From Girardia tigrina (taxonomy: Eukaryota): a stretch of 64,000 nt of DNA. The stretch spans positions 14,639 to 78,638 of the forward strand of contig MQRK01239066.1 in assembly GCA_001938485.1 (NCBI GenBank). Reading direction: 5' to 3'. Of the stretch, positions 20,693 through 59,945 are shown piece by piece. Numbering within the stretch: position 1 is the stretch's first letter; every line of letters starts with the position of its first letter. The notes below the pieces were generated by a model. It made no database searches and had not been told where the DNA came from. It saw nothing but the letters and a program-made list of their open reading frames with translations. The translations under genes were made by a program, and so were the position numbers.

Positions 20693-20719
20693 CATTGTAG
20701 TAAAATCAATTATTGTAGT

Positions 20720-22386: not shown

Positions 22387-22425
22387 GACCTGAAGATGAC
22401 GGTAGATCCGTCGAAATATATTGTC
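22387..22425 (+). ncRNA. Minimal type-I hammerhead ribozyme (PLE pLTR)
   Basis: Stem I GAC/GTC, core CTGAAGA, stem II GACGG/CCGTC, GAAA, palindromic ATATAT. Predicted cleavage after AUU (22422). Confidence 0.85.
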
Positions 22426-23199
22426 TTAAAATATATTTTTAAATGGATGACTTTGGTTATTTGTATAAATGTCCGATAAATCCACTCTTGTAGACAATTC
22501 TTTCAATCCTTATAGGACAAAAGCACTTCACCTAATAATGAATATTGTAACATAACTTATGTAATTCCTTTTAAAAATTTATAATCAAATTTATAGTATA
22601 ATTTCATAACAAGAATACAGATTAGAGACATTCGAAATGTCAACGAAATTCGACCTCCAGTAATTTTGCCATTGTTCTTCGAGGATCGTTTCTGTACTAG
22701 AGTAAAATAATTGCGTCTTAATTTGAGTTCTTTTTTTCAATCTATGATCGAAATATTCTCAAAAAAACTACTTTTTCGATTTTATTTTTTCCATAGGAAA
22801 AATGTAATCTAATATTAACTGATTTTCGTCACATTCATTTTGAATAAAACGCATGAAAAAGGAACGGTATTATGATTTTCTAATCAAAAACCGATTTTTA
22901 AGTCATTCAAAGATTGGACCACCCCGAAACATCAAAATTCTTTTCTAAATGGGCGGTTATTTGATTACCCAAATTTTGTTACCAAATGGAAGTCGGATAT
23001 GCAAAACAAATTCAGCAGAATTAGGTGAACACGGTTAAAGGGTTCAAAAATATTATGTTGATTATAGAGATTAAAGAAATATAAATTTAAGTAGCACAAA
23101 TAGTCTAAGGTATATTTATTTATTATTTATTTTATAATCTTACAAAATAATTCCGCAGCAAAAAAGACTCTCTGATTCAACTCTTTATTGCGCAATTGT

Positions 23200-23784
23200 C
23201 CATAAAGCTTAATAAAAATATCTCAAATGTTTTCCTCTGGAATTTGGCTCTAAAATACTTTTAGTTTTGTTTTGAGAATGTTTTTGAAATTTTGTTGGAT
23301 CCTTTCAGATCAGTACAATTAGTTGAAGCAAATTTTTTTCCGCCATAGAAAGGTTTCTGACTCCAAAGGCTGTGTTGTTTCTGAGCTGTCTCTGTTTAGT
23401 TTTTTACAACATATAAACGTTCCATTAACTGTATTTTGTTAAGTTTATCCTCGGCGTTTTACTGAAGATTATTTATCATTTATATAATAAATCCCAGTAT
23501 TATGTTCGTCTTTTTTTCACTGTCTTGAACTAAACTATCTTAAAGTTTTTTTATGAAAATTATTTAAAATAGTAAATAACAAAGAATTTAAATTATGATA
23601 AAGTGTACCAAAAATTAATTTAAAGAGTAAAAATAATAATTTCAAAAATAATGTGTAAATATTGTATTTAGAATAAAGATTTTAATTCTTTATTTTTAAA
23701 ATCGTTTTTCAAGCTCCACAATACCGGTATTGCCGAAGTTAATTTCGTTCCCAAATACCGGTAATACCGATATTGTAAACCCTA
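23200..23784 (-). mobile_element. hAT-like terminal remnant
   Basis: The terminus reads TAGGGTTTACAAT on the minus strand, with AATACCGGTA(T/A)T subterminal palindromes. The left boundary is approximate. Confidence 0.5.
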
Positions 23785-24503
23785 GTTTTCACAAAAAATA
23801 TAAATATCTGCGTTTTCAGAATTAAATTATTTAATTAATTAATAATTTGTTATGTAACGTTAAAATAATTTATTTTAATTAATTTAGTCTAGAAAAAATT
23901 CAAAAAGAAGTTGTCTTCAAAGAAGAATCTCATGGAATGGTCAAGCATAATTAAAGTATTAATTTTAGTAAATATAATCGGCATTGAAGAATTTGGGGTC
24001 CTGAAAACTGAGTCATTAAATGATAATAAAATTAATAATTTCAAATTGTAATTATAATTTTTTTTTTCATATACACAGAAGAATTTCAACGAATAATTGA
24101 AGAAAAATAAAAAAAAAAGATTTTTAATAATATGATATTCTGTAATTATAATGATTCTCGACTACGGAAATAAATATAAATAATCATTTATACTTTATTT
24201 TGTTATTATTTTTCTAAGTCTTGATGACTGTTCGATATTGTTGTTATTATTTTAATTAAATTGATTCTTTCCCACTTTTTTCGAAGCAAAATTGAAACAA
24301 TTTTAGTCAATGAACCAACAAAATATTATCAAAAATAATATTTCATTTATTTCCAGATTTTCAGTTATATTTTGAATAATTTAACTTTGGGATCAGTGAA
24401 CAAATCTTTAAAGCGATTTGACAACATTATTTTACTGGGAAAAAATAAATAAAATATTACTTTTAATTAATAATCTAAATGATTATTAAAATTTACAAAG
24501 TTA

Positions 24504-24900
24504 TGTGGAGCGTTCAATAAGTACTCGGCCTGACAAAGAAAACGAAGTTCAAAAAGGGAAATTTTTATAACACGACAAGCTTAACGTATATAGTCATCAT
24601 TTTTTAACATCAGGTTCGTTCTGCTGGACACACTTCCGTCAACGAAAAATCAACTTAGAAAACGCTTTTTTGAAAAACTTTGAAGATCATGCGGAGAAGA
24701 CATCTTCCATAGCAACCTTCAAATCGTTTTAGGATCAAAACTGGATGCCTCTCACAAGCTTCTTTAGCTGTCTAAAGAGGTAAAAATTGCTAGGTGTCAA
24801 ATCTGAGCTGTATGGTGGTTGATCCAGTAGAACTAGTCCAGCATCTTCAGTTTTGGCCCGAGAAATGCCTGCTGTGTCCATTGTCGTGGAGAAGAGAGAT
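24504..24900 (-). mobile_element. mariner 3' fragment with one TIR
   Basis: TA|TGTGGAGCGTTCAATAAGTA is related to the TIRs at 37154 and 43060. Minus-strand PPYSSDLTPSNFYLF motif. Confidence 0.8.
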
Positions 24901-25438
24901 TATTCACACCATCGAATGCAAATAAAAATCAAATAAATAAAGAACAAGTGCGAATTGCCAACAAAATTATGTAAATTATATTTGGTAATGAAATATTAAA
25001 ATCATGATTTATGTCTACCAAAACATTATGGCATTAAAAAACGTGAATTTTAAATTTAAATCTTGACATAACGACTCTTGTTGAAATATTTCTAATCTTA
25101 CGACCAGCATTACAAGTATTTACATGAAATACTTTAATAATTTGTTTGCAATAAATATATTTTTGATATTTAATATTATTAATATTTTAAAATTTAATAC
25201 TAAAATTCGATGAGATTTTAGATTTTTTACAATTTCACTTGTCTTGGTCTAATTGGGGTCACACGTGTTTTAGTGATGAAATTCGAAAAGAATTTAATTA
25301 CGGTTTAATGTATATTTGGTTTGATATTTAATGGTTACTTTTAGTCGATTTTAAAGAACAAGTTAAATGTCAATCTTCAATAAACACATAATATAAATTT
25401 TAAATTAGATATTTGTTAAAACATATTTAAAAAATTTT

Positions 25439-25479
25439 TTATACACGTTTCAATCAGAATATTTGGTCATCTTCAGTAA
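25439..25479 (-). ncRNA. Minimal hammerhead ribozyme motif
   Basis: TTA CTGAAGA T GACCA-AATATTC-TGATT GAAA CGTGTA TAA. Core intact; one stem-II mismatch. Confidence 0.65.
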
Positions 25480-25590
25480 CTTAATGATTTGATAATTCGA
25501 GGGTATAGATGTAAACCAAGTTAATTGATCGTTTACTTTGAATTATATTGGATAATAATTAACAATTACTTATTCATTATTATTATTATT

Positions 25591-25890
25591 ATTGATAAAA
25601 CGAAGTCCGGATTACTTTCAAAAAGCATTTTGACAGTTATTGGGAGGGAGTGTCGTGTGAAGCATTGTTAATTAGGTCACGTTGCCCTAAAATCAATGTT
25701 CAATCGGCAGTCTCAACCAGCTTATTGAGAATTTTTGATTAGCATGATTTCGTGCAATCGATTACATAATCATCATTTTTGTATTTATATACAGGTGAAT
25801 TGATTATTAATTAGTGATCTGAAGATGACGGTAGATCCGTCGAAATATATTGTCTTAAAATATATTTTTAAATGGATGACTTTGGTTATT
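25591..25890 (+). mobile_element. Young PLE pLTR copy with a short inverted tail, inserted in (TAT)n
   Basis: Nearly identical to 22194-22460. It is preceded by ATTGATAAAACGAAGTCCGGAT, which is also at 21812-21833. Confidence 0.9.
25816..25854 (+). ncRNA. Minimal type-I hammerhead ribozyme
   Basis: Same as 22387-22425 except stem I is GAT/GTC (U-G wobble). Confidence 0.8.
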
Positions 25891-26407
25891 ATTATTACTG
25901 TTTATAATTTTTGTATTACATATTTATTGAAGATATTTAATATTGATACTTCTTTACTTTTACAATTTTGGATATTAATAAAGGGATTGTAGTGTTTGAT
26001 CAACAACGATTCACAATACGACCTCTGAAAATATGTCTTAAGAATAGAAAACTTGTCTTTTGAAATTAATCAGCCTCGTTTTGATCATTAGTTTCTTGCA
26101 GCTCTTGTTTCCCGAAAATTGAAAAAAGGAACCCATACTAAATGAACTAGTTGTGGAGAATCGTGTAGTTTGTGACGAGAGCTCCAAGAGATGGCAATGA
26201 TATTGCAAATTCCCGTTTGCTTATTTCATGAAAATTAATTGTGATTGTTCTTTAGAACATGTACAGTATATAAAATACTTTTGAAATTCAGTAAAGAAAC
26301 TCAAAGATTGCAATTTCATTTAGTTTATATATAAGTATCTGATAATAAAATAATATATAATATTTTTGTCTGATAAGATTAAACGAAATAGTCAAACTTC
26401 CCTTCGA

Positions 26408-26438
<31 letters not shown>

Positions 26439-27559
26439 ATTAATTCTTCATTTTAAGAATCATGAAAGACTTATCTAGACAACTTGATCTTTAAATAAAA
26501 AGAAATGTGAATTTTTAGAAGAACAGTCTGTAGTAAAAATTGTCTTAAATGATGTATGATCAAGAGCAATAAATTAATAATTTATATCTACAGATGTTTC
26601 AAATTTTGGATTGATATTCTGTAACCGATTGGACACATCGCACTTGATATTGCTATTAGAACTCTGTTTAACTGTCATGTTATAAAATACGCGGAGACCC
26701 AGCGGTATTGACTAATTTTCTTAGAGACAATTAATGAAAACAAAAGTTATCCATATGAAATTAGTGGCGTTGGGACTTTGTCACATCTTTGACCTCATCT
26801 CACTAATTATATTATTAATCAGTGTTAATATATTAATTAAATTAAAAAAAATATTTAAAATTTATTTAATAATATCACTTAATTTTGATTAAGAATTGAG
26901 CTGTTTCTACTGGATTTTCTACAACTTGATTCAATCGAGTTGAAACACCTCAATTTTTCCATTCTTTTTATTAGCTCACTTTCTATATCCATGGAATATA
27001 GAAACATATTTTTGAAGATCTTTACTCAATCAATTTTCTTCTAACTTTGCACACTTTTTCATTCTTGATGACAATAAATGATTATGTAAAAATTTGATTG
27101 AAAAAAAATTTTTAAGATCCCAAAATAGGAAAAAACGGAAAATTTGAAGTTCCCGAACAATATTAATTGCAAGATATCTACTTATAAATTATAAGTAATT
27201 TATATTAATTTTTAATGTGTTTTTTTAATTTAAATTTTTTAAATTTAAAAAACTTTGTTGACAAAGTAGTTTGCATAAAGAATGAATATAAAAAATTTTA
27301 ATTTTTTAATTTACTATTTAATCATATATAAAATTGCAAATATCGAATTAAAGCCGATTATAATAAAGAATTTTAAATTTTGTGTAAAAACTTTGATAAT
27401 TATAATGAGATGATAATCACTGAGACATTGTTAATTGAGCATTCTAACTATGCTTAAATGTTCAAAATAAAAATGTTCATTGATATTTCATTCAAAACAG
27501 TTCAAATGCATTTCAATCATCGAATCATAATTCAAAATCTCGATCGGTCGATGATTTAA

Positions 27560-28400
27560 ACAAAAAATGACACGTGAACTCCGCTCTTCGATATCAATAT
27601 ACAGACAAACAAAACAAAACAGGTCGTTCAAAAAAAGTGAATATCGTTCAAAAGGATACTGACATTTCTTATTTACGTCTCAAATTAATACATTAATTGA
27701 AAATGATCCAAAACAGTTCAACACATAAAAAATAGAACCACAACCAATGTACACCAAATCAAAAAGACTCCAATCACAGAAAACAATCAATAATTCTCCA
27801 TGAATAGAAAATCAGTCTCAATTCAAGCATTTTAAAAATCCTCTGATGACATTACAATACCCCTCAAATTAATTGGGTCACCCATATTTTTTAGCACCGT
27901 TCATGGCAGGATAAATATTATTCAACGAAATTTATATCATCGATAGAGAATAACGAGAAGAATATTCTGTGAAAATTTCAATGAAAAGTCTTATTTACAA
28001 TGCTCCATCCCATAAAGCACACGTAACACGTGCTTTTTTGGAAGAAAATTGTATTGCGGTGTTAGACAACAAACCACCATAATCGCCTAACCTTAACGTT
28101 ATTGAGAGTTTGTGGGCAAATATTAAATCAAAGATTAGAAGATAGAATGTGGCGTCTAAAGAACNNNNNNNNNNNNNNNNNNNNNNNNNNNNNNNNNNNN
28201 NNNNNNNNNNNNNNNNNNNNNNNNNNNNNNNNNNNNNNNNNNNNNNNNNNNNNNNNNNNNNNNNNNNNNNNNNNNNNNNNNNNNNNNNNNNNNNNNNCCG
28301 TCATTACAATAGTAATTCTGTTCAGTACGAGAGGAACCACAGATTCGGATCACTGGTAAATGTGCTTGATCGAAAGGTCAGCGGCACGAAGCTACCATCC
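27560..28400 (+). mobile_element. Decayed Tc1-like remnant
   Basis: NAPSHKAH and PP*SPNLNVIESLW at ~27997-28120; KTGRSKK upstream. Confidence 0.65.
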
Positions 28401-28605
28401 GAGAGAAAAAATTAAAATTAGAAAACTGTATATTGCTTAATTATGATAGTTTTTTTTAATTCGGATTATCTTCCAATTTTTCATCTACTATTCAAAAAAC
28501 TAAATTAAAAAGCTCATTAATGAAAAATACTAGTAAAATTCATTCAAATAATCAAAATGAATCTAATCCTTTAAATGATTAATCAACTCATTCAACATTT
28601 TTAAG

Positions 28606-29412
28606 TCAAAAATTTGTCCAGAGTCTTAGTGGAATTCTTGGAAGTGGCTCATCGAATATAGATCGGAAGATATTCACATTTAGCAGTGGGACAATTTCAT
28701 TTAAATCCTACCAAAGAATTATTGAAAAGAAGCAGAACTTAGTTTATTTTTTAAAAACAAATTACGAAAATTATATTAAAATCACCAGCACTCACAACAC
28801 TCAAACAAAATCATAATTATAAACATATAATTGTATAATTTAATTTTTTATATAAATATATATATATATTTTTATAACACTTCCGATGAATCTGGAAGAC
28901 ACTTATTAAGCATGGAAGACTTAATAAATGGATTGAGTTGTAAATCATACACATATTGATTGCCTTGAAAGACTGTTGGATAAAATTCATTATATGTAAG
29001 TAAATGATTTATTTTATTATAAAAATTTAATTTATATTAAATTATTTTTTAAAAAATCATAGACTATTCTATAAGAATGTCAATAGAAATTCCTTTATCT
29101 TTTAAAACAATAGAAAATATCCAAAATAATTAGAAAAATGATTTCTTATCATACAACTAAATAAAAATATAATTTAAAAAATGTCAAGTTTATATTTTAG
29201 GTTTTAATAATAATAATAGTAATTATTATTATTATTATTATTATTATTGTTATTGTTGTTGTTTTTGTCTTGTTAGTGTTCAAGTTGCACCAGAAACTTA
29301 CAGGTGGTAGCTGGGTCATAGTGTTCGAGGTGCTGGACCCATTTACTTTTGAATGATTTCTTTTTGGTTCGTTGATATTTTTTTGCGTTTTTTTAACAAA
29401 GTTTCAATTGCA
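28606..29412 (-). other. Candidate spliced gene/pseudogene 3' exons (29412-29312, 28972-28881, 28707-28606)
   Basis: Phase-compatible GT-AG joins give ...KWVQHLEHYDPATT|FFQGNQYVYDLQLNPFIKSSMLNKCLPDSSE|DLNEIVPLLNVNIFRSIFDEPLPRIPLRLWTNF*. The first exon needs a frameshift in an A7 run. Confidence 0.35.
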
Positions 29413-30031
29413 CTAAAAATTACTTAATTTAAAATTCTCTCACAATCAAAATTTGTTAAATTCGCTTTGAAAAAGTTCTTCAAATTTTGAGATTGTTATC
29501 AAATTTTCAAAAGCTTCAGCAATAATTCAGATCCTTAAAAAGCATAAACAATTCAACTATCAAAACCTATCCCAATCCAAATAGAAAAAAACTGTCTTTG
29601 GGCAGAAGAGGAGACATTTAGAATATTAATAAAATAACAACAATTATAAATTTAAATTTAACTTGAAATTTCGAAACAATTAACAATATTAATATGAGTT
29701 AGTTAATCTTCTTTTCGCTGATAAAATTGTAAAAATTTAAACAACGATTAAAATTAAAAGCATTATTTAAAAATTTTTTAACAATATTTAAATTAAATTT
29801 TTAAATCAAGTTTCATATTATAATTGAAATAAATTATAATTTGAAACTATTCGTATTAATGTTATTCTTTAAACATTTTTTTGAAAATAAGATAGTAAAA
29901 GTAAGTTGAGGAAAATGTGAAACTGCTTTTTATGACAAATGTCAGCACATCTAGCCTATATTCTAAATGCTACAAAAAATTCAGTTGGAAATTTCTGTGT
30001 GATAGTAGATATAAACTTTGAGATGATGGGT

Positions 30032-30605: not shown

Positions 30606-30651
<46 letters not shown>

Positions 30652-31979: not shown

Positions 31980-32863
31980 TTAGGGTGAACCAAAAGTCTT
32001 TTCGTAATTTTTACGTCATTTTGTTCAATTGTTTCTTATTACCAAATAAAGATATTTTAGATACATGTGTTGTATGTTTTTAAAGCTCTTGAACTGCGCT
32101 ATCACAATATATATTAAAACGTCTTTTTTATAAAAATCATGGAAAAGTTTAAAATTCGTGTTCTTTTAAGCCATTACTGGAAACAGGGCTTAAACGCAAC
32201 TGCAGCAACAAAGAAGATACGCGAAGTTGAAGGCGATAATGTGATCTCAAATCGTACTGCACAAAAATTGGTTCAAAAGATTCAACGAAGGCGACATTGA
32301 CCTCGGAGACAATGCACGTTCAGGCCGAGCTATCGATGGAATTTCGAAGGCGTGATTCACTTCGAGCTGATTCCAAATGGTCGTACCATCGACGCTGACC
32401 TTTACTGCGCCAAACTTGATTGAATGTATGCGGCACTTGGCGAGAAATACCCCGCTTTGATCAATCGAAAGCGAGTTCTTCTACAACAGGACAATACAAA
32501 ACCGCACACCGCCAAACAAACAAAGGAAAAAATCAAAAATCTCAACGCCTTTGAATTTCTTCCACACCCAGCGTATAGTCCGGATCTTGCGCCATCCGAC
32601 TATCACTTTTTTCCGCTCTATGGCACACTTTCTTCGTGGTCGCAGCTTCAATAATCTGGCCAAGGTCGAAAACTGGTGTCACCAGTTCTTCGCTTCTAAG
32701 AACAAGGATTGGTACCGCAGCGGGATCGCACAACTTGGCCATAGATGGGTTCAAGCTATAGATTCAAATGGCCTTTACTTTGAAACTTAAATTTTTTTAT
32801 TTGTTGTAAAATTATGTTTAAATTTTTAATAAAAAATACGAAAAGACTTTTGGTTCACCCTAA
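31980..32863 (+). mobile_element. Internally deleted mariner (884 bp)
   Basis: TA|TTAGGGTGAACCAAAAGTCTTTTCGTA TIRs at both ends. The HTH N-terminus is fused directly to the C-terminal catalytic part (QDNTKPH, YSPDLAPSD). Confidence 0.93.
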
Positions 32864-38803: not shown

Positions 38804-40145
38804 TTAGGTTGGTCGAAAAATAATGGCTGTTTTTGAGCTTTATACTTTGTTTATCTACTTTGATATGTATATAAGTTTAAATGCATTAGTGTTAGATATT
38901 ATTTGAAATCTTATGCCTANNNNNNNNNNNNNNNNNNNNNNNNNNNNNNNNNNNNNNNNNNNNNNNNNNNNNNNNNNNNNNNNNNNNNNNNNNNNNNNNN
39001 NNNNNNNNNNNNNNNNNNNNNNNNNNNNNNNNNNNNNNNNNNNNNNNNNNNNNNNNNNNNNNNCAATATCAATAAAGCGTTTGGCAAGGGAACAACTTCT
39101 GAGCGCACAGTGCAACGATGGTTCCGAAAATTTTCTGATGGAGATGAAAACCTTGAAGATGAAGAAGGTCGTGGTCGTCCAGGTGCTGTGAACAACGAAA
39201 ATTTGAGGACAATGGTGGAAACAGATCCCCGTATAACAATCAGAGAACTTGCAGATGGGTTGGCCATTAGACATTCAACAGTCCTGGATCATTAAAAACA
39301 ACTTGGAAAAATCAAGAAAATTGATGAATGGGTTCCACATGATTTGAATGAAAATCAAAAGAACCGACGCTATGAAATTTGTTCTGCCAATCATCTTCGC
39401 AATAAAAACGATCNNNNNNNNNNNNNNNNNNNNNNNNNNNNNNNNNNNNNNNNNNNNNNNNNNAAAACGATCCATTTCTTGATCGTATTGTTACCTGTGA
39501 TGAGAAATGGATCCTATATGATAACCGACGTCGATCTGCACAGTGGTTGGACAAAGATGAAGTACCAAAACACTTTCCAAAATCGAAACTAACACCCCGT
39601 AAGGTTGTGGTGACAGTTTGGTGATGTGATGCTGGAATCATCCACTATAGTTTCTTGAATCCATGTGAAACAATCACAGCGGAGAGGTACTGTCATGAAA
39701 TTGAAGAAATGCATAAAAAATTGAAAACCCTTTGTCCGGGATTGGTCAATCGAAAAAGTCCCATCCTTCTTCATGATAACGCTAGACCTCATATTTCAAA
39801 AGTGACTCTTCAAAAGCTTAATGAGTTGGGCTATGAAACCCTGTCTCATCCACCATATTCACCAGACCTCTCGCCAACGGACTTCTACTTTTTCAGGCAT
39901 TTGTACAATTTCATACGTGAAAAAAATTTCGAAAACTAAAATGATGCTCAAAATGCCTTCCAAAAATTCGTCGCTTCGACAACCGATGCATTTTATGCTG
40001 ATGGAATAAAACAACTTGTTTCTCGTTGGCAAAAATGTATTGATGCCAACGGTTCATACTTTGATTAATAAACTTTTGTTTCTGTGAATTTGCACGTCTT
40101 TGAAGTTTGTGTCCGAAAACCGAAATTATTTTTCTACCAGCCTAA
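38804..40145 (+). mobile_element. Full-length mariner with a disrupted D,D34D transposase
   Basis: TA|TTAGGTTGGTCGAAAAATAAT ... ATTATTTTTCTACCAGCCTAA|TA. Motifs WVPHDL, TCDEKW, HDNARPH and YSPDLSPTD; stops present. Confidence 0.95.
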
Positions 40146-43059: not shown

Positions 43060-44330
43060 CGTGGTGCGCTCAATAAGTAGTGAGCCTAACATAAAAATAA
43101 TAATCCAATTTCAATGAAATTTATTTTTCATAACAAGCAAGTTATTAAGATATCATTTCTCAAAGAAATCTCCATTCACACCAACACATTTTTTCCAGTA
43201 CACAACAAGGTCCAGAAAGGCTTTTTCGAAGAATTTCGGTGGCTGTTGAGCCAAGAAATTTGAGACTGCATCCTTCAAGTCTTCTTTCGTAGCAAAATGT
43301 TGACCCCTGAGAGCTCGCTTGAGGTGGTTGAAGAGATGATAATCGGAAGGCACCAGATCCGGGCTGTATGGAGAGTGTGAGAGCAGGGTGAGGCCACAAC
43401 CCTCAATTGACGACATTGACAGCCCACTTGTGTGGATGAGTGCATTGTCATGCAAATTATATAACTCACAAACTCTGCTCTTCCTCAGCTTTTTGACCTG
43501 CAGCACGAGCCAGGATTAGTATTCACTGTTGATACGAACACCAGCATCCGCAAAATCAGCAAGGATCATTCCAGTTGCATTCCAAGAATTGGTGAGCATG
43601 AGAGCTTTTTTGTGTGAAGTTGATGATCGCATCTTCTTCGAACACCCTTCCACTGGCAGCTTCTACTCTTGAGACTCACGTCTTGATTCTGGGACATAAA
43701 GGGCAAGTGGTGTTTCATCCATTGTCATAATATTCTGTAAGAAGCGGTCTCCAATACGTTCATAGAGGTTTAAGTTTTCCTCGCAGCACATCGATCGCCG
43801 ATCATTCATGTCTGCTGTTAAAAACCGTGGCACGAAGCGTTAACATAATTTTATAATTCCAGTTTCTGCAAGCAGTGATTTTATGGTACCTGTGCTGACA
43901 TTTAATCACATTGTCAGTTCTCTGGTGGTGATTCGTCGCTCACACTGCACAATTTTCTTGAGTTTTTTTTGCTATTTCTTTGCCAATTTCACGTGGCCTA
44001 TCTGACTTTTCTTCATCAAAAACAGACGTTCGACCATCTCGAAAATGGTTGAACCATCATTTGACAGTAGATATGGATGAACTCTCTTCGCCATAAACAG
44101 AACTAAGCTCGACGAATATTTCTTCCCGTATTTTCCCTTTCATTAACAAGAAACGAATAACTCTTCGATATTGAACGTTTTCCAATGAAATTTTCGAATT
44201 TATGCGCTCTCTAACCTAAAAAAACAAATATCCCAAATATTACCTTATTAACTTGCTTGTTATGCAAAAAATGCATTGGTATCAGAATATTATTTCTATG
44301 TTAGGCTCACTACTTATTGAGCGCACCACG
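43060..44330 (-). mobile_element. Full-length mariner (1271 bp) with a frameshifted D,D34D transposase
   Basis: Perfect 34-bp TIRs CGTGGTGCGCTCAATAAGTAGTGAGCCTAACATA flanked by TA. Motifs RFVPRFL, MTMDET and HDNA-34-PSD. Confidence 0.96.
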
Positions 44331-45205: not shown

Positions 45206-46380
45206 CAATGTTCCCGCTAAGCTGCGCACGTGCGCGCGCACCTTGTAGACTAAGAGCGCGCAGTGGTAAGATTTTTGCGCGCAGCAATAAAATACTTAGT
45301 AATTGTTAAAATTCTTTTTGAACGGTAATTAAAAAATTTTGAATTTTAATTTAATTGGCTTATTTGAATACATTTATTAGCAAATTAGACCAGTTAATTT
45401 TGTTAAATTGATATATTGATAATTGTTTTTGTAAGAGAATGTTGTTGTTAATTTTTTAATTTTCGAAAATAAGAATTTTGGTTTTTAAAAATTTCGAATT
45501 ATAATCGAAATTAAGAAAAAATAATGGAAAATAGTATTAAAAAAAGAAAATAAAAAAATGGAAATTTATTTAAATAACAAACAATTATAAATCAAAATCA
45601 TTAAAATAAACAGACCATCATGTCCAAGAGAAAATATGAATACATTTGCAATGGTTCAAGGAAACGTGTATCTTTAAAATTTTAAGTTGAATGGCTTGAC
45701 GTGATCGTGATGACTCCAATCCCAACCTTTCGTGATATAAAACCAGTGAAACTCAATGAAATGTTTGACTATACTGAAGGACAGGATGCTGTAAAATGTG
45801 AAATGTGTGCAGAAATAAAAGCGACCGGGGAATTCTCTTCTGGAAAACAATAGAGTGAGTGGAAACTGGATTATCTCAAGCGGCATTTGCTACAAAAAAA
45901 TCACCTAGAAGCTGTAGAAACAATTCGTAATCGGCAAAATGGTGGAATAGTTCGATTGCTGCAAGAAACAGAGGAACATCGAGAATCACGGCAAGAAACT
46001 TTCAAACGCAACCAAGCTTCAAAAGAAAAAATAAAGGTATTAATTGACAACGTTATTTTAGCCATAAAAAATAATATATACATTAATACCGTTCAAAGCA
46101 TTAATGAGCATATGTCAAAATATATTTCTTCATTGCCAGAAAACTGGAGAGGAAAAAATTATGCTTTTGAATTTGTTGAATGTATTAGTAATGTTCTTCA
46201 AAATCAGCAAATGAGAGAACTAAAGGCAGCAAACTATCATTGTCTTATAACAGATGAAAGCACGGACATAAAAGTTCATAAAATGTTAGTTATGTATATC
46301 AAGTATCGATTTGAGAATAAATACAAAACTATTTTTACTGGAATTCAGGAGCTTACAACATGTGATGCTTATTAAGAACA
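45206..46380 (+). mobile_element. hAT element 5' part with a ZNF862/Tip100-like transposase fragment
   Basis: CAATGTTCCC terminus with TGCGC subterminal repeats. TTF-type zinc finger (CEMC...LKRHLLQKNH) and first catalytic motif LITDESTDI. Confidence 0.8.
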
Positions 46381-46789: not shown

Positions 46790-48220
46790 ATTATTTATCG
46801 TGAACATCTAAAATATCAATTTTCCATCGGGGTGGGAGAAACACATTTCCAAATACTAAACTCAACATACAAAATTCAACAAACCAATTTCAACATACCA
46901 AATTTAAAATATTCCTCACAATGCTGATTCTATTGTGGTGACAATAGTCTAATAATTTCAATGAATTAAAGATAGGAACAGAAAATAAAGAAAAAAACGA
47001 ACATTCCTGAAACATATTAAATTTGTTGACATGGTTTAAATGCAATATTTAGCATAATGTGTGGTATAGGCAAACTGATGAGATTACTATGAGTTAACCG
47101 ATAGAACCAACGTTAGCTTCTGTTTTTTTTTTCAAAGATTGAAAATAAAAATTTAATTTTTTGATGGGAATTTTTGATTATGTATTTTTAGTTTTTAAAG
47201 ATCAGGCCGATATACTTCCATTTCTTAATTTTATGATATCGTTTCGTCTAAAAGTTGCTTTTATTGTTGAAAATGAAACAAACTATAAATTTGGTATTCC
47301 TTAGTTTCCAGACTGGAATTTAAAGGAAGCAAACTGATACTGATTTATATACTTCAACGTTTTAGTGAACCGAAATATAAAAGAAACAATAAAAGAGGCG
47401 TAATTAATCTGTCATGTTCGTTGTCATCAACTTTTCATAAATATGTACAAAATGTTAATAAACTAAGTTATTTATTAAATCAGAAAAGTCATTCTAAAGC
47501 TTTTACTGAAAAATTAGTGTGAGAAACAGGGGATTATACAATTTTGAAAGATAGTTAAAAAAATCTGAGGTTTGCTTCTCCTAATGGTTCTAAAAAGATA
47601 TTAATAAAATACCTAAATATCTTTAAATTATACCTTATTGAATAAGGTTTATTTTAAATTATTTAAAAACTTTAAAAATGCATTGTTAAAAGCAACTAAC
47701 AATCAATTAAATTTGAAAATTATATCACGATCTCATCAAGTTCAAAACATATTCAGTAATAAAACTGTCACACCTTTAACACTTTGTTCTGATATTGTTT
47801 ATGAATATAAATGTAATGGGTGAGATGCCACTTACATTGGAGAGACTGCCCTTCCTCTCTGTAAACGAATTTAAGAACACGATCGAAAAGAGAGTAAGAG
47901 TAATATTGCTGAACATAAGAAAAAATGTTAATGTGACATTAATATTGATAATTTCAAAATTCTGCTTTAGCATTTTAATAGTTATTAGGAGGGAGTGTCG
48001 TCTGAAGCATTGTTAATTAGGTCACGTTGCCCTAAAATTAATGTTCAGTTGGTAATCCCACCCAACTTATTGAGAATTTTCGATTAGCATGATTTCATGC
48101 AATCTAATTCATAATCATTATTTTTGTATTTATACGCAAATGAATTAAATTATTAATCTATGACCCGATGATGATGGTTGATCCGTCGAAATATATTTTC
48201 TAGAAATATATTTATTAATA
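46790..48220 (+). mobile_element. Decayed, long PLE copy (RT - linker - GIY-YIG - pLTR)
   Basis: WYRQTDEITMS*PIEPTLASVF corresponds to the Y.Q..G.AMGSP RT motif. Also present: VYEYKCNG, YIGET, and a 3' end homologous to 22137-22440. Confidence 0.85.
48162..48200 (+). ncRNA. Degenerate minimal hammerhead
   Basis: GAC CCGATGA T GATGG-TTGAT-CCGTC GAAA TATATT TTC. Confidence 0.65.
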
Positions 48221-48724: not shown

Positions 48725-48770
<46 letters not shown>

Positions 48771-50332: not shown

Positions 50333-51600
50333 TTAGGTTGATGCAAAAGAAATGTTGTTTTTTAACCGTCAACTTTAAATGAACGTAACTTTCTTTAGAA
50401 TTGACTTTATTAGTCAAAATAAAAACCATTACATTGAACACACTGTTGCCAAAGGGTAACAAGTTTTTTTATTCCAGTTTCATAAAATTGTGGAGTTCTT
50501 GAGACGATGAAGTCGTCCAAGGCTCTTTCAGTATCTCCTTGTTTTCTGAAGCATATTTTGCAAAGGAACTGGCAGAAATGTTTGAAAAAATGATAGTCTG
50601 TAGGAGAAAGATCTGGTGAGTATGGTGGATGAGGCAAAGTTTCATATCCCAGTTCGTTTAACTTCAGCATGGTCTTTCTTGCAACATGTGGACGAGCGTT
50701 GTCATGCAGAAGAATTGGCCCATTTATTGATTAATGCCGGCCGTTTTTTTGTTGTTCTTGGTGCATTTTGTCAATTTGCTGACAATATTTTTCCGCTGTA
50801 ATTGTTTCACCTTGTTTTAGGAAGTTGTAATGGATTAAACTGCGTGCGGACCACCATACAGTTACCATGACTTTTTTGGTGTAATTTTGGCTTTGGAGCC
50901 TCATTGAAGATCAACCACTGAGCTGGACGTCGCCAGTTGTCGTATAGGATCCATTTTTTATCACACGTTACAATTCGATTCAGAAACTGGTCGCTTTGAA
51001 TATGCAAAAGCAGAGAAGAACACACGGTAAATCGACGATTTTTTTGATTTTCGTTTAATTTGTGCTGCACCCACTTGTCCAGCTTTTTCACTTTCTCGAT
51101 TTTCTTTAGATGGCGAACAACTGTTGATTGGTGAACGTTGAGTTCTTGAGCGACTTCCCGTGAATTTTATGTGAGTCGGCATTGATTAACTTCTTCAAAT
51201 GATCGTCGTCAACTTGTGATGGTCGACTACCGTGTTCTTCATCTTCAAGGCTCTAGTTGACACTACGAAACTTAGAAAACCAACGTTGTATTGTTCGTAA
51301 GTTAGTGGTATGTTGTCCAAATACATTGTTAATATTCCGAGGCGTTTCTGTAGCTTTTCGACCTAGTTTGAAATCGTAGAATAAAATTGTTCTCATTTCC
51401 TTCTTTTCCAACATTTCTAAAATAAAATAAATACACCTTAAATTAACAACAATAATGTCATACTTGGTATCAATATAGAGATTAAAGTTTAAGCTTTAAA
51501 GTAAATTTAAATATGAATCTATTTATTAATGATTTTCTAAATATTTCAAACAATAAATATTAAATACATTAAAAACGACATTTCTTTTGCATCAACCTAA
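50333..51600 (-). mobile_element. Full-length mariner (1268 bp) with a disrupted transposase
   Basis: TA|TTAGGTTGATGCAAAAGAAATGT TIRs at both ends. Motifs WVQHKL, TCDKKW, HDNARPH and YSPDLSPTD. Confidence 0.95.
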
Positions 51601-51619
51601 TATTATTTATACAACAGTC

Positions 51620-52740: not shown

Positions 52741-54681
52741 ATTATTTTAAAGATATTTATGTAAAAAAAATTTCATTTTGTCTATAATTAATTATATCTC
52801 GGTATATAAAAGTTAATTTTTATTTGACCACCCTATACATATTATATTTATAATCAATTACTTCAAATAATGGAAAAGGAACAATTCAGATAAGACGGTA
52901 TAATATCACAGCAGAAAACTGGAAGATATCGTTATTAAGTTAAAATGTAAAAGTAAAATAACTAACTTATATTATTAAAAATGTTTTTGTGGATAGTTCG
53001 AAATAATTTTAGAATGAATTTTGTTTTGAGGTTCTCTCTTGCAAGTAATCTTGATTCAAGTAGTTTGAATGCTTAATGTTAGGCGCAAGTTATTTTTTGT
53101 TTTAAGTAGTTTCTTATCATTCCAATTACAAAGAATCTGATTCTATAAATTGTATGAACTTACTTAGGATCGAAAAGGTTTGTTGAAGTCTTTTGAAGGA
53201 TTTAGGATAACGAATCAGTTTATATTCTTTAAATTCAAAATTTATTGCCAAAATTGCTAATTATTTAATGGCCCTCAATTTCGTAATCTTTTATAAACAT
53301 GACTGATTATATATAATTTACTTTTGATGTTGGTAGTATTGGTAAAATTTTGATGAACTACATCAATTAACTATTACCTCACAATAGTTACATTCTACGC
53401 TTTATATTTTAGTGCAGAGTATTATACATATACCCAAGTTTACAATAAATCTTTAAACTAATATTCATAAACTAGTTTGCAAAATACTGGATAATATTTA
53501 TAATTAATTTTTATTGAACAACACGAAACAAAAAAGCAGTTCTTCAAAATATTTGCATAATATTGCAGTAAGAAAGAGTGTTCCAGATAGTGGAGGTTCC
53601 GGAAATGTGCATTTCCGGGAGCTCATAATAATACGTCATTATTATTTGCATAAAAAACATCTGATGGTGAGCTTTCATAATCAAAATGGTATTTTTGAAA
53701 TGTTTTAGTATACTATTTAATAACAAAATGGCGTATAATTTTAGTTTTGGGGGTTACGTGGAATACTTGATACAAAATACAACTTTTGAAAAGTGATTTC
53801 AACAATATACAAATGACAATTTTTATACTTTGAATGAAGGACATGGAAAATTAAATTATTATTAAACTGGTTGAAATTATATATGAATTTTTATTTTAGA
53901 CAAATCATGCAATTGGTTCATATTTTATACTGATTTATGTATAAAGGTGATTAAAAAAATCAGGTGTCCGAGGACTTTTGGGCTAGAGTAGTATTCTGAA
54001 TGTTTTATTCTTTCATTTTGTCAGAACTCTATTTTGCAAAGAAAATTTTTTAGTTATCATTTGTAGAAGGGAAAATTACTTTTACATTTACGTTTATCTT
54101 TACTTTTTTGCGTAATATAAACTACTTATAAATTATAAGTAGATTTTTTATACTAGTATTGTTCAGGAACTCCGATTTGGTCATTTTTTCCTATTTCGGT
54201 ACCATAAAAACGTTTTCTAATCAGATTTTTATATTATCATTTATTGTTATCAAAAATATGTAAGTATGCAATGTTTGGAGAAAATTGATAAAGTAAAAGG
54301 CCATCAAAAATAAGTTTCTAAATTCCATGGATATATATCCATATATATATATATATATATNNNNNNNNNNNNNNNNNNNNNNNNNNNNNNNNNNNNNNNN
54401 NNNNNNNNNNNNNNNNNNNNNATATATATATATATATTGGTCCACAGACATTTGGTATACAATTTTTTTTGTATAAAAATGAGGAAAAAATTAAATTATT
54501 AAATTATTTATAAAGAAATAAACAAGTCCATAACAACGTAATTTATTAATTATACGAGAAATTATTCTTCAGCAACTTTCCTCAATTCAATAAATAAACA
54601 TATATCTCTCCATTTGATTTAAATTTTTCAATCTTACAATAGATTCAATTCTTTCATTACTGAATAAAGATTTCTTCTTAC

Positions 54682-54759
54682 TTGAGTGATTTATTCTGCG
54701 ATATCCATTTGATAATTGGTGTATTAAAATATTGTCATCGTTGTAAGGATTTCTGATGT
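54682..54759 (-). CDS. Candidate internal host exon (78 nt, phase 1-1)
   Basis: AATAG acceptor and GTAAGA donor. Open frame IRNPYNDDNILIHQLSNGYRRINHS. Confidence 0.3.
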
Positions 54760-55069
54760 CTATTAAATTTTTGAATTTTTGAATTAAAGATAAAAAACAT
54801 TTTAAATTAATATTTAACTATAATAGTAAAAAATAGAAATTTATTTTAAAACAGTTTCAATTTTAATAATATTTAAAACTGTTTTACATAAAATTTGTAA
54901 TAATAAAACTTGTAATTAAATAAATTAAAAAAACGAATTAAATTTAAAATAATCAAATTAATAAATAAAATAGATTTGAAAACGAATTTAATATAAGATC
55001 CAAAAAATATTTTAACAGAATCTATTAAACTTTAAAAGTAAGTACCAAATGAAAAAAACTAAATATTAT

Positions 55070-55620
55070 AATAAATCCCAAATACCATGAATCTAAAAAT
55101 TATTTCCCAATCAAATAAAATTCATGATATGTTCAGTAATAAATCTTCCACTCATCTCGTTTTGTGCTCCGATCTTGTTGATAAATATACTTGTAATGGG
55201 TGTAACACCACACACATTGGAGAGACATCTCGTCATCTCTGCAAACGGATCAAAGAGCATAATCGGTTGGATAATGGGAGCAATATTGCCGAACATACTT
55301 TAAAATGTAAAAAGAAAATCGGAGAAAATGATTTTAAAATTCTGTGTAATCGATTTAAAAATTACTGGGAGAGAGTAACGTGTGAGGCCTTATTAATAAG
55401 ATCCATGGATCCAAAAATTAATATNNAAGCTTCACACTCAACTTCTCTGTTAAACATTTTCAAATAGAGCCTTTATTACATGATTGATTGCATAATCACA
55501 TTTCTCATATATAAGCTGCAAAAAGCCAGTGTTAATTTAGTCTGAAGATGGCATAGGGTAATCCACTGAAATTAATTACAAAAATAAATTGTGAAAAATG
55601 GCGTTCACTTTTTAATTATA
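55070..55620 (+). mobile_element. PLE 3' end: GIY-YIG endonuclease ORF (55087-55467) plus pLTR
   Basis: Motifs KYTCNGCNTTHIGETSRHLCKRIKEH and RVTCEALLIRSMDPKIN. Confidence 0.92.
55539..55580 (+). ncRNA. Minimal hammerhead motif, imperfect stems
   Basis: AGT CTGAAGA TGGCATAGGGTAATCCACT GAAA TTAATT ACA, about 70 nt after the ORF stop. Confidence 0.6.
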
Positions 55621-55979
55621 AGCAATATTAAATTTTAATGAAGTTTAATAAAATTATTATTCAAAAGAAAATACAATATTTAAAAACAATGTATGTAATT
55701 AAATACAAAAATTAATATAAAATATTTGAAGGTAGTTTATGTTTATAAGTTTTTAAATTAAAAAATTAAATTCGATATAAAATTTTAAAAATAATAAATT
55801 AACATATTTTGATATTTATAATTATTTAGATATTATTGGTTTGTGCAAGAAAAATTAAAAATCGTTCCTCGAAAATTTACTTAGGAAAAATTGTTTAAAT
55901 GATATGTTTATTGTTGTTATAAAATAAAATTTTCGAAAATGTCTGAATTCACATCTAAAAATAATACCGAGCCTTACAA

Positions 55980-56300
55980 TAGTTATCATCTTTTTTGATG
56001 ACTTCTAGGAATTTCCAAATTGACTAATGTTTCATTGAAATCATCCTTCGATATTTTGAATGCCATCATTCAACGTTGTTTTTCGTTCTATTATCATCCA
56101 AGATTACTGATGAATATCAATTCCAAATTTTAATATGAAATCTTGCTGCAGAATTATTGATATTTTCTGAATTGAATAAATTTATCGGTTTAATATAATT
56201 AATTTTAATGTAGTCTGCAAATTCGTTTAATTGATTGGGACAACTGGAATAAATATTGCTAAAAATAGAAATTATATCTCATTCAGGCGTACCTCGATTG
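55980..56300 (-). pseudogene. MULE transposase C-terminal remnant
   Basis: FADYIKINY...IWN...RTKNNVE*WH corresponds to the RTNN..EGWH motif. Confidence 0.65.
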
Positions 56301-56411
56301 TCATATAATTAATAAATTACGTTTTTATGGACCTATTTATTTATTTTTTAAATTATTTAACTTTTCTTCATTTTTATATAAAATATTTTATACTAAAAAT
56401 GTCTGGGTACC

Positions 56412-56451
<40 letters not shown>

Positions 56452-57399
56452 AAAGTTAATAAAAAGAATGGAAAAATTATGCATTTTTGTCATATATAAA
56501 GATTAGAAAAGTAATGATTGAAAAAAACAAAGTTGTCTTCAATCAATAGTTCGAGAGATTTTTCAAGATTTATTTTAAACTATAAGGCTCAGTCATACCA
56601 CATCTGAGGCTTACTTAATTGCTAAATTTACTCGAAACGAGTGGAAGAATCGTAGAAGAGGTGGTTACGTTTTATAATTTTATCACGCCAAGTAAATCCT
56701 TGAGAATGTCATAAATATCTTCATAATTTTACATTTAAATAAGCAAAATGGAAATACAAATGAAATGATAAATGATTTGATAATTTTATAATAAAATAAA
56801 AAATAAGACATTAGAAAAATCAAATTATGTCACATATTAAGATGAAAATCAGGAATAAATCAACTACTTTCAGTACGGATGAATTATATTTTGATTTCGA
56901 GAGTTTAACTGATATCGACACAGATTTAGAATGGGTGGGGTCATTGAGGAAAGCAAATGTGGGAAATCTGGTAAAGAACTAGACAATAATGTACTTGAAG
57001 CTTCTAGTAATTAAGAAATAGAATGAGTAAGCAGACCAGAAATGTCTCCGTACTTCTTTGCTTTGTAATTGTTAGAAATTTCAGATAATTATTTTATTCA
57101 GATGGATATACAAGGCTCAAAATATTTAAATCAAATTGCATTTTTAGGCTAATACGTTCATGTTGTTAATTCAATGAAACTATATTAATGAAATGTAAAG
57201 AAATAGTTTAATTTATCGTTTTAATTAATTAATATAACAAAATCATTATTCTCTCAATTACAAGAAACAAGTTATTAATATTTCCATTATTGTTCCAATA
57301 TTATCATTAGTGTACTATAAAAGTAAAATTATTCAATATTTATTCAAACAATTAAAAATTAAGTGACATTTAATTTTTTAACACAAAAAGATCCATTTC

Positions 57400-57630
57400 A
57401 AGAAAAAAATTTATTACCAAAGACAATTAATTTCGATGGTATAACCGTCATCGTCACGTCATAACGAAATTATAAATTTTCAATCTGCTTATACAAGCAG
57501 TGGTTGTGCAATCAATGAATAATTGCGTCATAAAAACACTAAAGTTGTCGAGAGACCCGTTTACACATTAATCTTAGGATTTAAAGATTTGAGATATAGT
57601 GCTTCAAAGACCACTTTCTCCAATAATTTT
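57400..57630 (-). mobile_element. PLE 3' end remnant
   Basis: Minus strand reads NYWR...FEALYLKSLNPKINV, followed by a hammerhead. Confidence 0.8.
57422..57460 (-). ncRNA. Degenerate minimal hammerhead
   Basis: GAC GTGACGA T GACGG-TTATA-CCATC GAAA TTAATT GTC. Confidence 0.65.
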
Positions 57631-57656
57631 TATTATTTAATAATTATAATTATAGC

Positions 57657-58170
57657 ATTGACTTATTTAAAAACCAAACCGATTTCACCATTTTGACATT
57701 TAGAATGTAATAAAATATAGTGATTAATTACTATTTATATAATTGAAAAACTATTTCATCATGTCTCAAAAAATGCTTTAAAATACTTTAACATGATTGG
57801 AAAAGATAAGTTGTGAAATCCGTACGGACTTTGCTGAACACATCCTCATTGAAAAGAAATAGTTCTATTTTGGCTCACAAAAAATTTTAAGGTTGACAAA
57901 GTAATCTCTAGAACAATACTTCTAAGTTATTTTAAAAAATTTCAACAAAAAGTAGGAAAGGATTGTTGTCGAAGCTCTGTTAATAATTATGATGGTATCA
58001 TCATAAAAACATTTTACATCCAATCTCAATAAAGTATTTTAAAACATATTTTTGAGACACAATGCAATAATTTTTCAACTAAATGTAAAAGTTAATTAAG
58101 CACATATTTTATATAACATTGCGGATACCATAAAGATAAAAACCAGGCTTGTTTTGTAAATAAATTCAAT
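57657..58170. repeat. Diverged ~150-bp inverted repeat (fold-back/MITE-like)
   Basis: 57657-57805 aligns with the reverse complement of 58015-58170 (e.g. TGTCTCAAAAA..G.TTTAAAATACTTTA). Confidence 0.7.
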
Positions 58171-58984
58171 TAAAATGAGTTTTTTTCTATTGAAGTTTCT
58201 ATTACTTAAGACAATATATGATATCAATCTTGAATATCTATGTTTAATCATTTTAATTTAACCAAAAATTAATTTACAAAAGTATTGAATGCTTCTGGGA
58301 TTTTTTTTATTTTTTTTAATTTAAAATAATTTTAATAATATTGGAAAGAATAAATAACAATAGTAATTTCACTCAAAAAAAGTATTAAAATTTATAAGAC
58401 TTAGATAAATATAACTTAATCTAAAAAGATCTAATAATTTTTATGAAAATCATAAAAAATAGGGCTGAAATTTAAAAAGAAAATTAAAATAAATTAACAT
58501 AAATAATTTTTTAAAAAACGAGAAAATCATTTTTGCATATCAAATTATTTTGAAAAAAAATTAATTTGTATAAAGAAATTTCAGATAAATTGAAAATTTA
58601 TGTTCACTCATAAATCAGCTTAATTTAAAAACTAATTAAACATTTAATGAATTTTAATTGAAGAGATCTCGGGATTTTCGAACGTGATATTTTATCAACA
58701 TTACGAAAGATTATTTTAAATTTTTAAATTTAAAGAAAAAAACTTTATATTTTCCAATAAATATTCAAATGTTAGAAAACCAATAAATCTTTCGATTGTT
58801 TTCCGGGGTAAAGATTTCTTTTAATTTTTTTTTACTTTCTACTAGTATTTCGGTTGTTTATCAAGAATGTGTAATGAATTTTTGATTTTTAATAAATATT
58901 AGAATAAAGATATTCATTTATTGTGTCAGATTGAGTTGAAAAAATGTTGTATTTTTAATTTCCTATATATATATATATCGAAAA

Positions 58985-59945
58985 TATAATTTGATTAAAG
59001 CTTTTTTTATATAATTATTGGACATGTTTCGATGTTTACATACATCATCATCAGCAATTTGAAAACAATGTTAATATATACATTAATTTTAAAAGAAATA
59101 TTAGGGATTAAATATTATTATTTATTAAAGTATTATTGGGTAATAATGGCAAAAATATTTTAATTAAAAATTTTAAGTATTGAAATAACCTTACTTTGCC
59201 CATTCTGAATGTTAATNNNNNNNNNNNNNNNNNNNNNNNNNNNNNNNNNNNNNNNNNNNNNNNNNNATTTTAAGTATTGAAATAACCTTACTTTGCCCAT
59301 TCTGAATGTTAATTGATGGGTTGTAGTGTCTTATTAGTAGAGATTCACAAAACTGTCGTTTGTAATGTGAATCAAAACCCTTTTGCAAAACAGAAAACTA
59401 ATCTTTTGAAATGGATGAGGTTCTATCCTTACAACATAACCAATGATCAAGAACCTTACTGGATCGACTCCTTTGCGAGTGCTCGCTAATCCGGGTTTTG
59501 AGATGACGATTTGTCTCTCCGATGTACGAGTTTTGACACCCGTGACAATTAAATTTATATACCAGATTAGCTTGCAAATCNNNNNNNNNNNNNNNNNNNN
59601 NNNNNNNNNNNNNNNNNNNNNNNNNNNNNNTACCAGATTAGCTTGCAAATCACAAACTGTTTTCGATTTGTTTGAGAGGAAACTTTGAACTTTGGATGTG
59701 ACTGAGACTACTTTAGCACTACTTATTGTTCTACAAATACTCTTCTTAATATACTCTTATGTATACAAACAAGCAAATAGAACACAACATTAGGGTAGCA
59801 TTAGACAAATTATGCACAGATGCACGAGTTAAAAAACAATTAAAGGAAGAAAATACTGAAGAATATAAACAAATCATTAAAATTCCATATTCTGAAGGAT
59901 TTAGAGCGTTTAAGAAGAGTATTTGTAGAACAATAAGTAAAAAAA
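58985..59945. mobile_element. PLE with an internal inversion: GIY-YIG and pLTR on minus (~59700-58985), RT-EN linker on plus (~59720-59945)
   Basis: Minus strand: KFNCHGCQNSYIGETNRHLKTRISEH...CESLLIRHYNPSIN. Plus strand: MYTNKQIEHNIR...IIKIPY. Confidence 0.85.
59017..59058 (-). ncRNA. Canonical-core minimal type-I hammerhead ribozyme
   Basis: ATTG CTGATGA T GATGT-ATGTAA-ACATC GAAA CATGTC CAAT: 4-bp stem I, 5-bp stem II, ACATGT palindrome and a GUC cleavage triplet. Confidence 0.9.

Follow-up and report, generated by a model that had tools for sequence, protein, structure and literature searches.

A stretch of 64,000 nucleotides of Girardia tigrina (contig MQRK01239066.1, positions 14,639 to 78,638 of the forward strand), here called the window, carries nine minimal type I hammerhead motifs of Penelope-like elements (PLEs). 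The helix III region of each copy would consist of one possible base pair and four letters, and the six letters from A15.1 to U16.1 vary between sites and are nearly always palindromic. The question is how such motifs would cut, and whether the palindrome tells one PLE family from another. We consider it very probable that they are minimal type I hammerheads lying in the pLTRs of endonuclease-bearing PLEs, and that the palindrome would form helix III between two copies, giving a double hammerhead in which each copy would cut the other.

Each of the nine sites, with its hexamer, was found where the preliminary description had placed it, and the predicted cleavage triplets did differ among them (AUU, GUC and GUA). 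Only four copies retain the complete core together with a sound stem II: those at 21.9 kb (21887..21919, minus strand; ATATAT at 21893-21888), 22.4 kb (22390..22422, plus strand; ATATAT at 22416-22421, predicted cut after 22422) and 25.8 kb (25819..25851, plus strand; ATATAT at 25845-25850), with AUU as predicted triplet, and that at 59.0 kb (59021..59054, minus strand; ACATGT at 59027-59022, predicted GUC). Stem I of the 25.8 kb copy is closed by a U-G wobble and the other three are intact. The remaining five bear lesions in core or stems. The core is changed in three decayed copies, at 4.6 kb (4607..4639, minus strand; ACATGT at 4613-4608, predicted GUA; A6>C and mismatched stem II), 48.2 kb (48165..48197, plus strand; ATATAT at 48191-48196, predicted AUU; U4>C and loss of the stem I closing pair) and 57.4 kb (57425..57457, minus strand; ATTAAT at 57431-57426, predicted AUU; C3>G). 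Stem II is mismatched in the decayed 25.4 kb copy (25442..25476, minus strand; ACGTGT at 25448-25443, predicted GUA) and decayed in the 55.5 kb copy (55542..55577, plus strand; ATTAAT at 55571-55576, predicted AUU). An Rfam search at the gathering threshold, below which minimal hammerheads without helix III fell, gave zero matches.

Eight of the nine hexamers are perfect palindromes, against 40 of the 375 GAAA-NNNN-T-H sites of the window (10.7%), a background that includes the nine motifs themselves; the nine are not independent, given that four are of one family and two of these four form an inverted duplication. The excess of palindromes exceeds chance. Perfect self-complementarity applies to all the segments except ACGTGT at 25.4 kb, read earlier as a family variant pairing with itself by wobble. 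Among 13 distinct relatives of this motif with GAA intact, seven have ACATGT, two ATATAT and none ACGTGT; judged from these copies, ACGTGT is a one-off single-change mutant within an ACATGT family. The relatives of the 4.6 kb motif have mostly GUU instead of its own GUA, and ATTAAT was present in all ten distinct relatives of the 57.4 kb motif. The AUU triplet had been called atypical; it is common in PLE hammerheads, being the site of five clusters in this genome and of five rows in the alignment of PMC4209133.

Six of the nine motifs sit 65-235 nt behind remnants of reverse transcriptase (RT)/GIY-YIG genes. The C-terminal part of a PLE endonuclease (22134..22307, plus strand) is upstream of the 22.4 kb motif, and a C-terminal scrap (22002..22088, minus strand; E 7e-6) is upstream of that at 21.9 kb, a motif that belongs to a 5'-truncated copy in inverted orientation (21848-22090). 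This copy points away from that at 22.4 kb, and the two form an inverted pair at 21.8-22.5 kb. A further scrap (25623..25736, plus strand) opens a 279-nt 5'-truncated copy, 97% like 22194-22472. A broken reading frame with RT motifs to GIY-YIG (47062..48081, plus strand), the GIY-YIG endonuclease end of a frame (55075..55467, plus strand) and, upstream of the 59.0 kb motif, the GIY-YIG end of a second PLE family (59287..59577, minus strand) were also identified. No adjoining PLE coding remnant was found at the 4.6 and 57.4 kb motifs, and the sole PLE coding match at 25.4 kb is weak (E 1.5e-4) and beyond a nested insertion. The 55.1 kb fragment of the window alone gave zero Pfam matches. For a relative of this frame there are 163 matching proteins; of the 120 listed, most carry PF00078 and some PF01541. 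The best match has RVT_1 and then GIY-YIG, the latter under its curated cut-off. This order, a single reading frame in which RT precedes the C-terminal GIY-YIG endonuclease, is that of EN+ PLEs. No intact full-length PLE frame was recovered; two 'open frames' of 1101 and 530 aa were rejected, both running through N.

The preliminary description proposed pairing between tandem pLTRs. The copies at 22.4 and 25.8 kb share one strand, 3,429 nt apart, but were not accepted as the pLTR pair of a single element: the interval contains no RT, and each copy is accompanied by an endonuclease scrap of its own. No same-strand motif pair flanking a reading frame was found in the window. Other contigs do offer that arrangement: L248 holds a complete pLTR-ORF-pLTR copy of the 55.5 kb family, with the motif at both frame ends (two same-strand copies 2.76 kb apart), and in L216 and L262 the order is endonuclease end, motif and start of the next frame, as in pLTRs in partial tandem. 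Partial tandem pLTRs, 5' truncation and inverted 5' copies are all present here and are the layout described for EN+ PLEs (PMC8557442). Most copies, all nine of the window included, appear to be 5'-truncated solo insertions. The non-LTR retrozyme class was rejected: 150-450 bp head-to-tail repeat arrays without reading frame were not found at the window sites, and the motifs follow PLE coding remnants. These particular PLE families may be undescribed.

With respect to the whole genome, the pattern CTGANGATGN{8,22}CGAAA, which has the extra base (T) between 9 and 10.1 and the G10.1-C11.1 pair, gave 43,160 matches versus 147 for the reversed pattern, a 290-fold excess; the form without the T gave 19,071 versus 9,091 in controls and is mostly chance. 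TWWA-T-H continues 22,302 of the 43,160 matches and CNNG-T-H 14,326, and among the first 100 rows listed for each, 99 and 97, respectively, were perfect palindromes as read by eye. In 120 distinct copies, a non-random sample drawn from the first contigs and the neighbours of one endonuclease, the hexamer was a perfect palindrome in 105. In clusters with at least four members, all but one of 101 copies had U, C or A at position 17; part of the sample was retrieved with a pattern fixing positions 16.1 and 17.

The claim that stem III changes between families and stays palindromic was borne out, a palindrome being the commonest hexamer in 14 of 16 multi-copy clusters. Across 14 cluster representatives the core CUGANGA ... 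GAAA ... NUH was invariant, partly by design of the search pattern, and all 42 cells of helix III were paired: C-G occurred in seven and U-A in seven representatives at one varying pair, and A-U in seven, U-A in six and G-C in one at the other. The covariation score of helix III was 0.895, reached by none of 500 shuffles (a count that is not a probability, since the representatives are related), and slid controls gave 0.07-0.20. Stems I and II were paired in 92.9 and 97.6% of cells, with two-sided changes in three of three and two of three pairs, respectively, and the ends of stem I are open. From these alignments, the hexamer changes between clusters are compensatory, the palindromes being kept through double changes. 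That the motifs are AT-rich palindromes standing by chance next to hammerhead-like words could be suspected from the G+C content of the window (about 27%) and its background of palindromic GAAA-NNNN-T-H sites. The 290-fold excess over the reversed motif, the G+C-containing palindromes of half of the clusters and the covariation in all three helices already refute this reading, whose probability is negligible.

A different explanation is that the hammerhead folds as a monomer held by the protein of the element, with the palindrome as the remnant of a longer hairpin; in an AT-rich genome, strand-symmetric C>T/G>A mutation would have helped to keep it palindromic. In its favour, of the four steps linking the five palindromes, three (ACGCGT-ACATGT, ACATGT-ATATAT and ACTAGT-ATTAAT) combine one C>T with one G>A, the decayed 25.4 kb family includes the two ATATAT copies mentioned above, ATGCAT occurs in one ACGCGT-type copy, and an Anolis PLE hammerhead cut only when the protein of the element was added (PMC11167929). 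However, at least one step (ATATAT-ATTAAT or ACATGT-ACTAGT) requires two transversions, and in none of the clusters of at least three copies is a non-palindromic, single-step state the most frequent. Moreover, the inner pair covaries and yet cannot close a hairpin without a loop, so that only pairing between copies accounts for its covariation. The monomer explanation is very improbable in our view.

The double hammerhead reading is supported by this covariation between families, as deduced from sequence, together with published work on the same class; it is not new. In the mechanism we propose, A15.1 would pair with U16.1 from the opposite copy, and the two stems I would likewise form between copies. 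The partner would normally be the other pLTR of the same element, in the same read-through RNA, and the two cuts would free a unit-length element RNA. The protein of the element or a host chaperone probably assists.

The energetics were calculated with a nearest-neighbour model, with stem I enforced, for 14 clusters (two-copy cluster 13 and cluster 16 were left out). According to the model, a monomer pays 4.7-5.4 kcal/mol to close its one-base-pair helix III, and two monomers closed in this way lie 12.2-19.5 kcal/mol above the homodimer. Two results count against the dimer. In every one of the 14 clusters the model makes two monomers left to fold freely more stable than the active dimer, by 2.0-13.2 kcal/mol, and in 11 of the 14 the contiguous pairs of stem I number only 2-3. 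The RNA data, six runs at two loci, consist of contigs that cross the predicted cut site, cannot show ends and may be DNA; no end pile-up and no GT..AG joint near the motif was listed in them, and they weigh neither for nor against cleavage.

The preliminary description went further and suggested that the palindrome could be a family-specific pairing code. Such a code would be a selected device that blocks pairing and cross-cutting between RNAs of different PLE families. In the 75 pairs of clusters with different palindromes, only 3-5 of the six helix III pairs remain in each, and just one of 91 cross-cluster pairs would form both stems I and helix III free of energy penalty, which speaks for a code. 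Nevertheless, only five palindromes (ATATAT, ATTAAT, ACATGT, ACTAGT and ACGCGT) serve about 16 clusters, ATTAAT being common to four multi-copy clusters and ACATGT to four to six, so the code is unsupported as worded. Furthermore, 13 of the 16 palindrome-sharing pairs already fail at stem I. Therefore, any exclusion would be mostly that of stem I, as independent compensatory drift would yield, and no code is needed given that, within one RNA, the nearest partner of a pLTR is always the other pLTR. We regard a code in the palindrome as very unlikely. The same low probability is given to helix III and stem I acting jointly as a selected self-recognition code in a genome where 16 or more PLE lineages live side by side and hammerhead copies exceed 40,000. 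Overall, the earlier interpretation is partly supported.

Palindromic helix III and dimer cleavage of PLE hammerheads are already published (Cervera and De la Peña, 2014). The metazoan PLE minimal hammerheads and small-palindromic-helix-III variants of PMC4209133 share with ours the CUGANGA-H-G...C-GAAA core and its additional base ahead of stem II, the short stem I, the palindromic helix III (15.2-16.2 and loop 3 are palindromic in the consensus given there) and the pLTR position, as well as solo copies truncated at the 5' end, pairs on opposite strands at distances of 100-700 bp and many families per genome. They differ in that the palindromes reported there are mostly of four letters while those of every cluster here have six, and in abundance (about 9,000 copies in Xenopus tropicalis versus 43,160 strict matches here). 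Fig. S3 of that work includes AUAUAU+U, an AUU site, in Drosophila rhopaola, D. elegans and D. ficusphila, and ACUAGU+C in Adineta vaga, as it appears in the machine-extracted table. For a Schistosoma minimal hammerhead described in it, cleavage was absent with the monomer and weak with dimers and trimers. Lünse, Weinberg and Breaker (RNA Biol 14:1499; via PMC6765202) reported dimer-cleaving PLE hammerhead variants whose palindromic stem III is very short and which, by description, resemble ours. A helix III of one base pair under a palindromic tetraloop, with dimers outperforming monomers, is likewise found in the retrozyme hammerheads of newt and axolotl satellites, the axolotl dimer cleaving much better (PMC7229834), and recalls the viroid double hammerhead (Forster et al., 1988). 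The satellite motifs have loop 1-loop 2 tertiary contacts and belong to 330-350 nt non-coding tandem repeats; the G. tigrina motifs differ in sitting in the pLTR of a coding PLE. In a 2026 preprint only one of nine retrozyme dimers cleaved, a result that counts against the double hammerhead reading, as do those on the Anolis PLE hammerhead (PMC11167929).

As discovery, these results add little: the palindrome, the dimer model and two of the hexamers were already published. Their value is as a clean test set, with five interchangeable palindromes on otherwise similar hammerheads in one genome. A literature search yielded no heterodimer or code tests, and Lünse et al. (2017) may contain palindrome-mutant or heterodimer tests. 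With natural family pairs that have the palindrome in common but not stem I, or stem I but not the palindrome, cutting across families can be tested directly. If true, the joint code would keep the RNA of abundant dead copies from pairing with and cutting the live RNA of other families. The function of the PLE hammerhead has been called unclear (PMC8557442); in Anolis, insertion in vitro did not require cutting, and the site was not the end of any RNA-seq read (PMC11167929). In this regard, the test set also bears on what the ribozyme does for the PLE.

The window contains nine minimal type I hammerhead motifs of Penelope-like elements (PLEs), all found with the hexamers given in the preliminary description: ATATAT at 21.9 (−), 22.4 (+), 25.8 (+) and 48.2 kb (+), ATTAAT at 55.5 (+) and 57.4 kb (−), ACATGT at 4.6 (−) and 59.0 kb (−), and ACGTGT at 25.4 kb (−). 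In each motif a short arm of stem I leads into CUGANGA; one extra U comes next, followed by stem II with G-C closure, GAA, the hexamer A15.1-N4-U16.1 (predicted helix III), H17 and the second stem I arm. Perfect palindromes were present in eight of the nine motifs, compared with 40 of the 375 GAAA-NNNN-T-H sites in the window. Core and stem II were intact in the 21.9, 22.4, 25.8 and 59.0 kb copies, and the other five showed lesions. A search of Rfam at the gathering threshold matched none of the window motifs.

The pattern CTGANGATGN{8,22}CGAAA, which leaves helix III unspecified, gave 43,160 matches in the 1.43 Gb searched, against 147 for the reversed pattern. The continuation was TWWA-T-H in 22,302 and CNNG-T-H in 14,326 (jointly 85%), with 99 and 97 perfect palindromes by eye, respectively, in the first 100 listed rows. 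Among 120 distinct copies, obtained from 129 sampled matches, 105 carried a palindromic hexamer, in a non-random sample composed of the first contigs and the neighbours of one endonuclease and partly fetched with positions 16.1 and 17 fixed. Clusters drawn without helix III comprised 16 multi-copy groups and five singletons. The commonest hexamer was palindromic in 14 of the 16; the other two groups, of two copies each, had one ACATGT and one non-palindrome apiece, and three of the five singletons were non-palindromic. Only five palindromes led clusters (ATTAAT, ATATAT, ACATGT, ACTAGT and ACGCGT). At one locus outside the window (L259:663(−) and 5021(+)), the non-palindromic ACTGAT lies at both ends of one inverted insertion, with the rest of the ATTAAT-family motif intact; the change therefore predates the duplication of that copy.

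Covariation was evaluated with 14 natural copies, one for each of 14 clusters. Helix III was paired in all cells, with C-G or U-A at 15.2-16.2 and A-U, U-A or G-C at the inner pair, and its score of 0.895, which is inflated by kinship among copies, was reached in none of 500 shuffles (slid controls, 0.07–0.20). Since the inner pair leaves no loop, it can form only between two copies. The five palindrome states require at least four double changes. Symmetric C>T/G>A mutation in an AT-rich genome may partly account for the palindromes, as it favours the C>T plus G>A pairs that make up three of the four steps linking them, but one step requires two transversions.

Six of the nine motifs lie 65–235 nt downstream of remnants of the PLE RT/GIY-YIG gene. 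A 333-aa relative of the frame remnant at 55.1 kb matched 163 longer proteins; PF00078 was found on most and PF01541 on some of the 120 listed matches, and the best match carried RVT_1 followed by GIY-YIG. In domain layout these relatives are like the EN+ PLEs described in PMC8557442. No coding remnant was found within the window beside the 4.6 and 57.4 kb motifs; at another locus (L243) a 57.4 kb-type motif adjoins an endonuclease scrap. The window copies appear to be 5'-truncated. Those at 21.9 and 22.4 kb form an inverted duplication and, being on opposite strands, cannot be on one RNA strand. Although the 22.4 kb copy shares a strand with the 25.8 kb copy, 3,429 nt away, no RT lies between the two. 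The proposed tandem arrangement of PLE terminal repeats (pLTRs) is present elsewhere in the genome: L248 has an ATTAAT motif at both frame ends on one strand (2,764 nt between), and in L216 and L262 the endonuclease end is followed by the motif and the start of the next frame.

Positions 20493–20695 hold a near-palindromic 200-nt piece in which two scraps of the 22.4 kb element, both ending short of the hammerhead, lie in inverted orientation. Within 25442–26066, a plus-strand truncated PLE copy (25623–25901) appears to be nested in a minus-strand copy of another family, apparently inserted between its endonuclease scrap and hammerhead. Elsewhere, about ten decayed CCCTAA/CCTAAC units at 5264–5323 resemble interstitial TTAGGG telomere repeat, and broken LTR-retrotransposon pol-like frames occupy 6306–8483 (+), with RVT_1 (E 1.5e-25) and, by reading of the translations, RNase H and integrase likeness. 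Fragments at 149–1728 (−), 10961–12254 (−), 32461–32790, 38864–39939, 43153–43515, 45854–46375 and 50410–51166 are presumably DNA-transposase-like (piggyBac-, pogo-, mariner- and hAT-like).

Anatomy, position, covariation and the two-motif layout of a complete element (L248) are direct observations. The covariation and published work on this class support the dimeric, double-hammerhead reading of the preliminary description. In the energy model, helix III closure costs a monomer 4.7–5.4 kcal/mol; the homodimer lies 12.2–19.5 kcal/mol below two monomers with closed helix III and 2.0–13.2 kcal/mol above two freely folded ones. In a read-through RNA the two pLTR motifs would pair for mutual cleavage, probably assisted by protein, and the cuts would release unit-length RNA. 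This reading is already in print. PMC4209133 (Cervera and De la Peña, 2014) defined these motifs and reported small palindromic helices III in Drosophila, rotifers, shrimp and mosquitoes; in that work a Schistosoma minimal hammerhead failed to cleave as a monomer, with weak cleavage of its dimers and trimers. The tandem-pLTR dimer idea was stated outright in a 2019 review (PMC6765202), and the axolotl motif, whose one-base-pair helix III carries a palindromic tetraloop, cut much better as a dimer (PMC7229834). Two published results speak against an essential role of the PLE hammerhead: an Anolis PLE hammerhead required the element's protein for cutting, and insertion in vitro did not depend on it (PMC11167929); and only one of nine retrozyme dimers cut (2026 preprint).

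Two details of the preliminary description need correction. ACGTGT, taken as a wobble-pairing variant, is a mutated copy: ACATGT occurs in 7 of the 13 distinct relatives of the 25.4 kb motif with intact GAA and ACGTGT in none, and position 17 is mostly U in these relatives. AUU, regarded as atypical, is the predicted cleavage site of clusters 1, 6, 8, 9 and 11 and also appears in the alignment of PMC4209133 (Drosophila rhopaola, D. elegans, D. ficusphila, Caenorhabditis remanei and Latimeria). Copies of one family can differ at position 17, with U, C or A, all of which the NUH rule permits.

The last AG lies 0–4 nt 5' of the core in 9 of the 16 clusters (1, 4, 6, 7, 8, 9, 11, 12 and 14; in the window, 22384–22385 and 55539–55540), often as TTAAT-N-TAG/TCAG, and resembles a 3' splice site within stem I. 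The intron of Drosophila virilis Penelope ends at the corresponding place, according to PMC4209133. No spliced contig was seen among the RNA contigs aligned to two loci; splicing at this AG would swap out the 5' arm of stem I.

A family-specific pairing code in the palindrome is not supported as originally worded: several clusters have palindromes in common, and stem I is predicted to insulate as much. Pairing between the partners of a type I double hammerhead also includes both stems I. According to the energy model, both stems I can reach two base pairs in only 3 of the 16 same-palindrome cluster pairs, and in 7 of the 75 different-palindrome pairs at a penalty of 2.4–12.1 kcal/mol; a single cross-cluster pair of 91 was penalty-free. 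No paper on a family code of PLE hammerheads was found in the literature searched, which does not establish its absence. The model therefore predicts that most cross-family pairing is blocked, through stem I as much as through the palindrome, and compensated drift suffices to account for this insulation.
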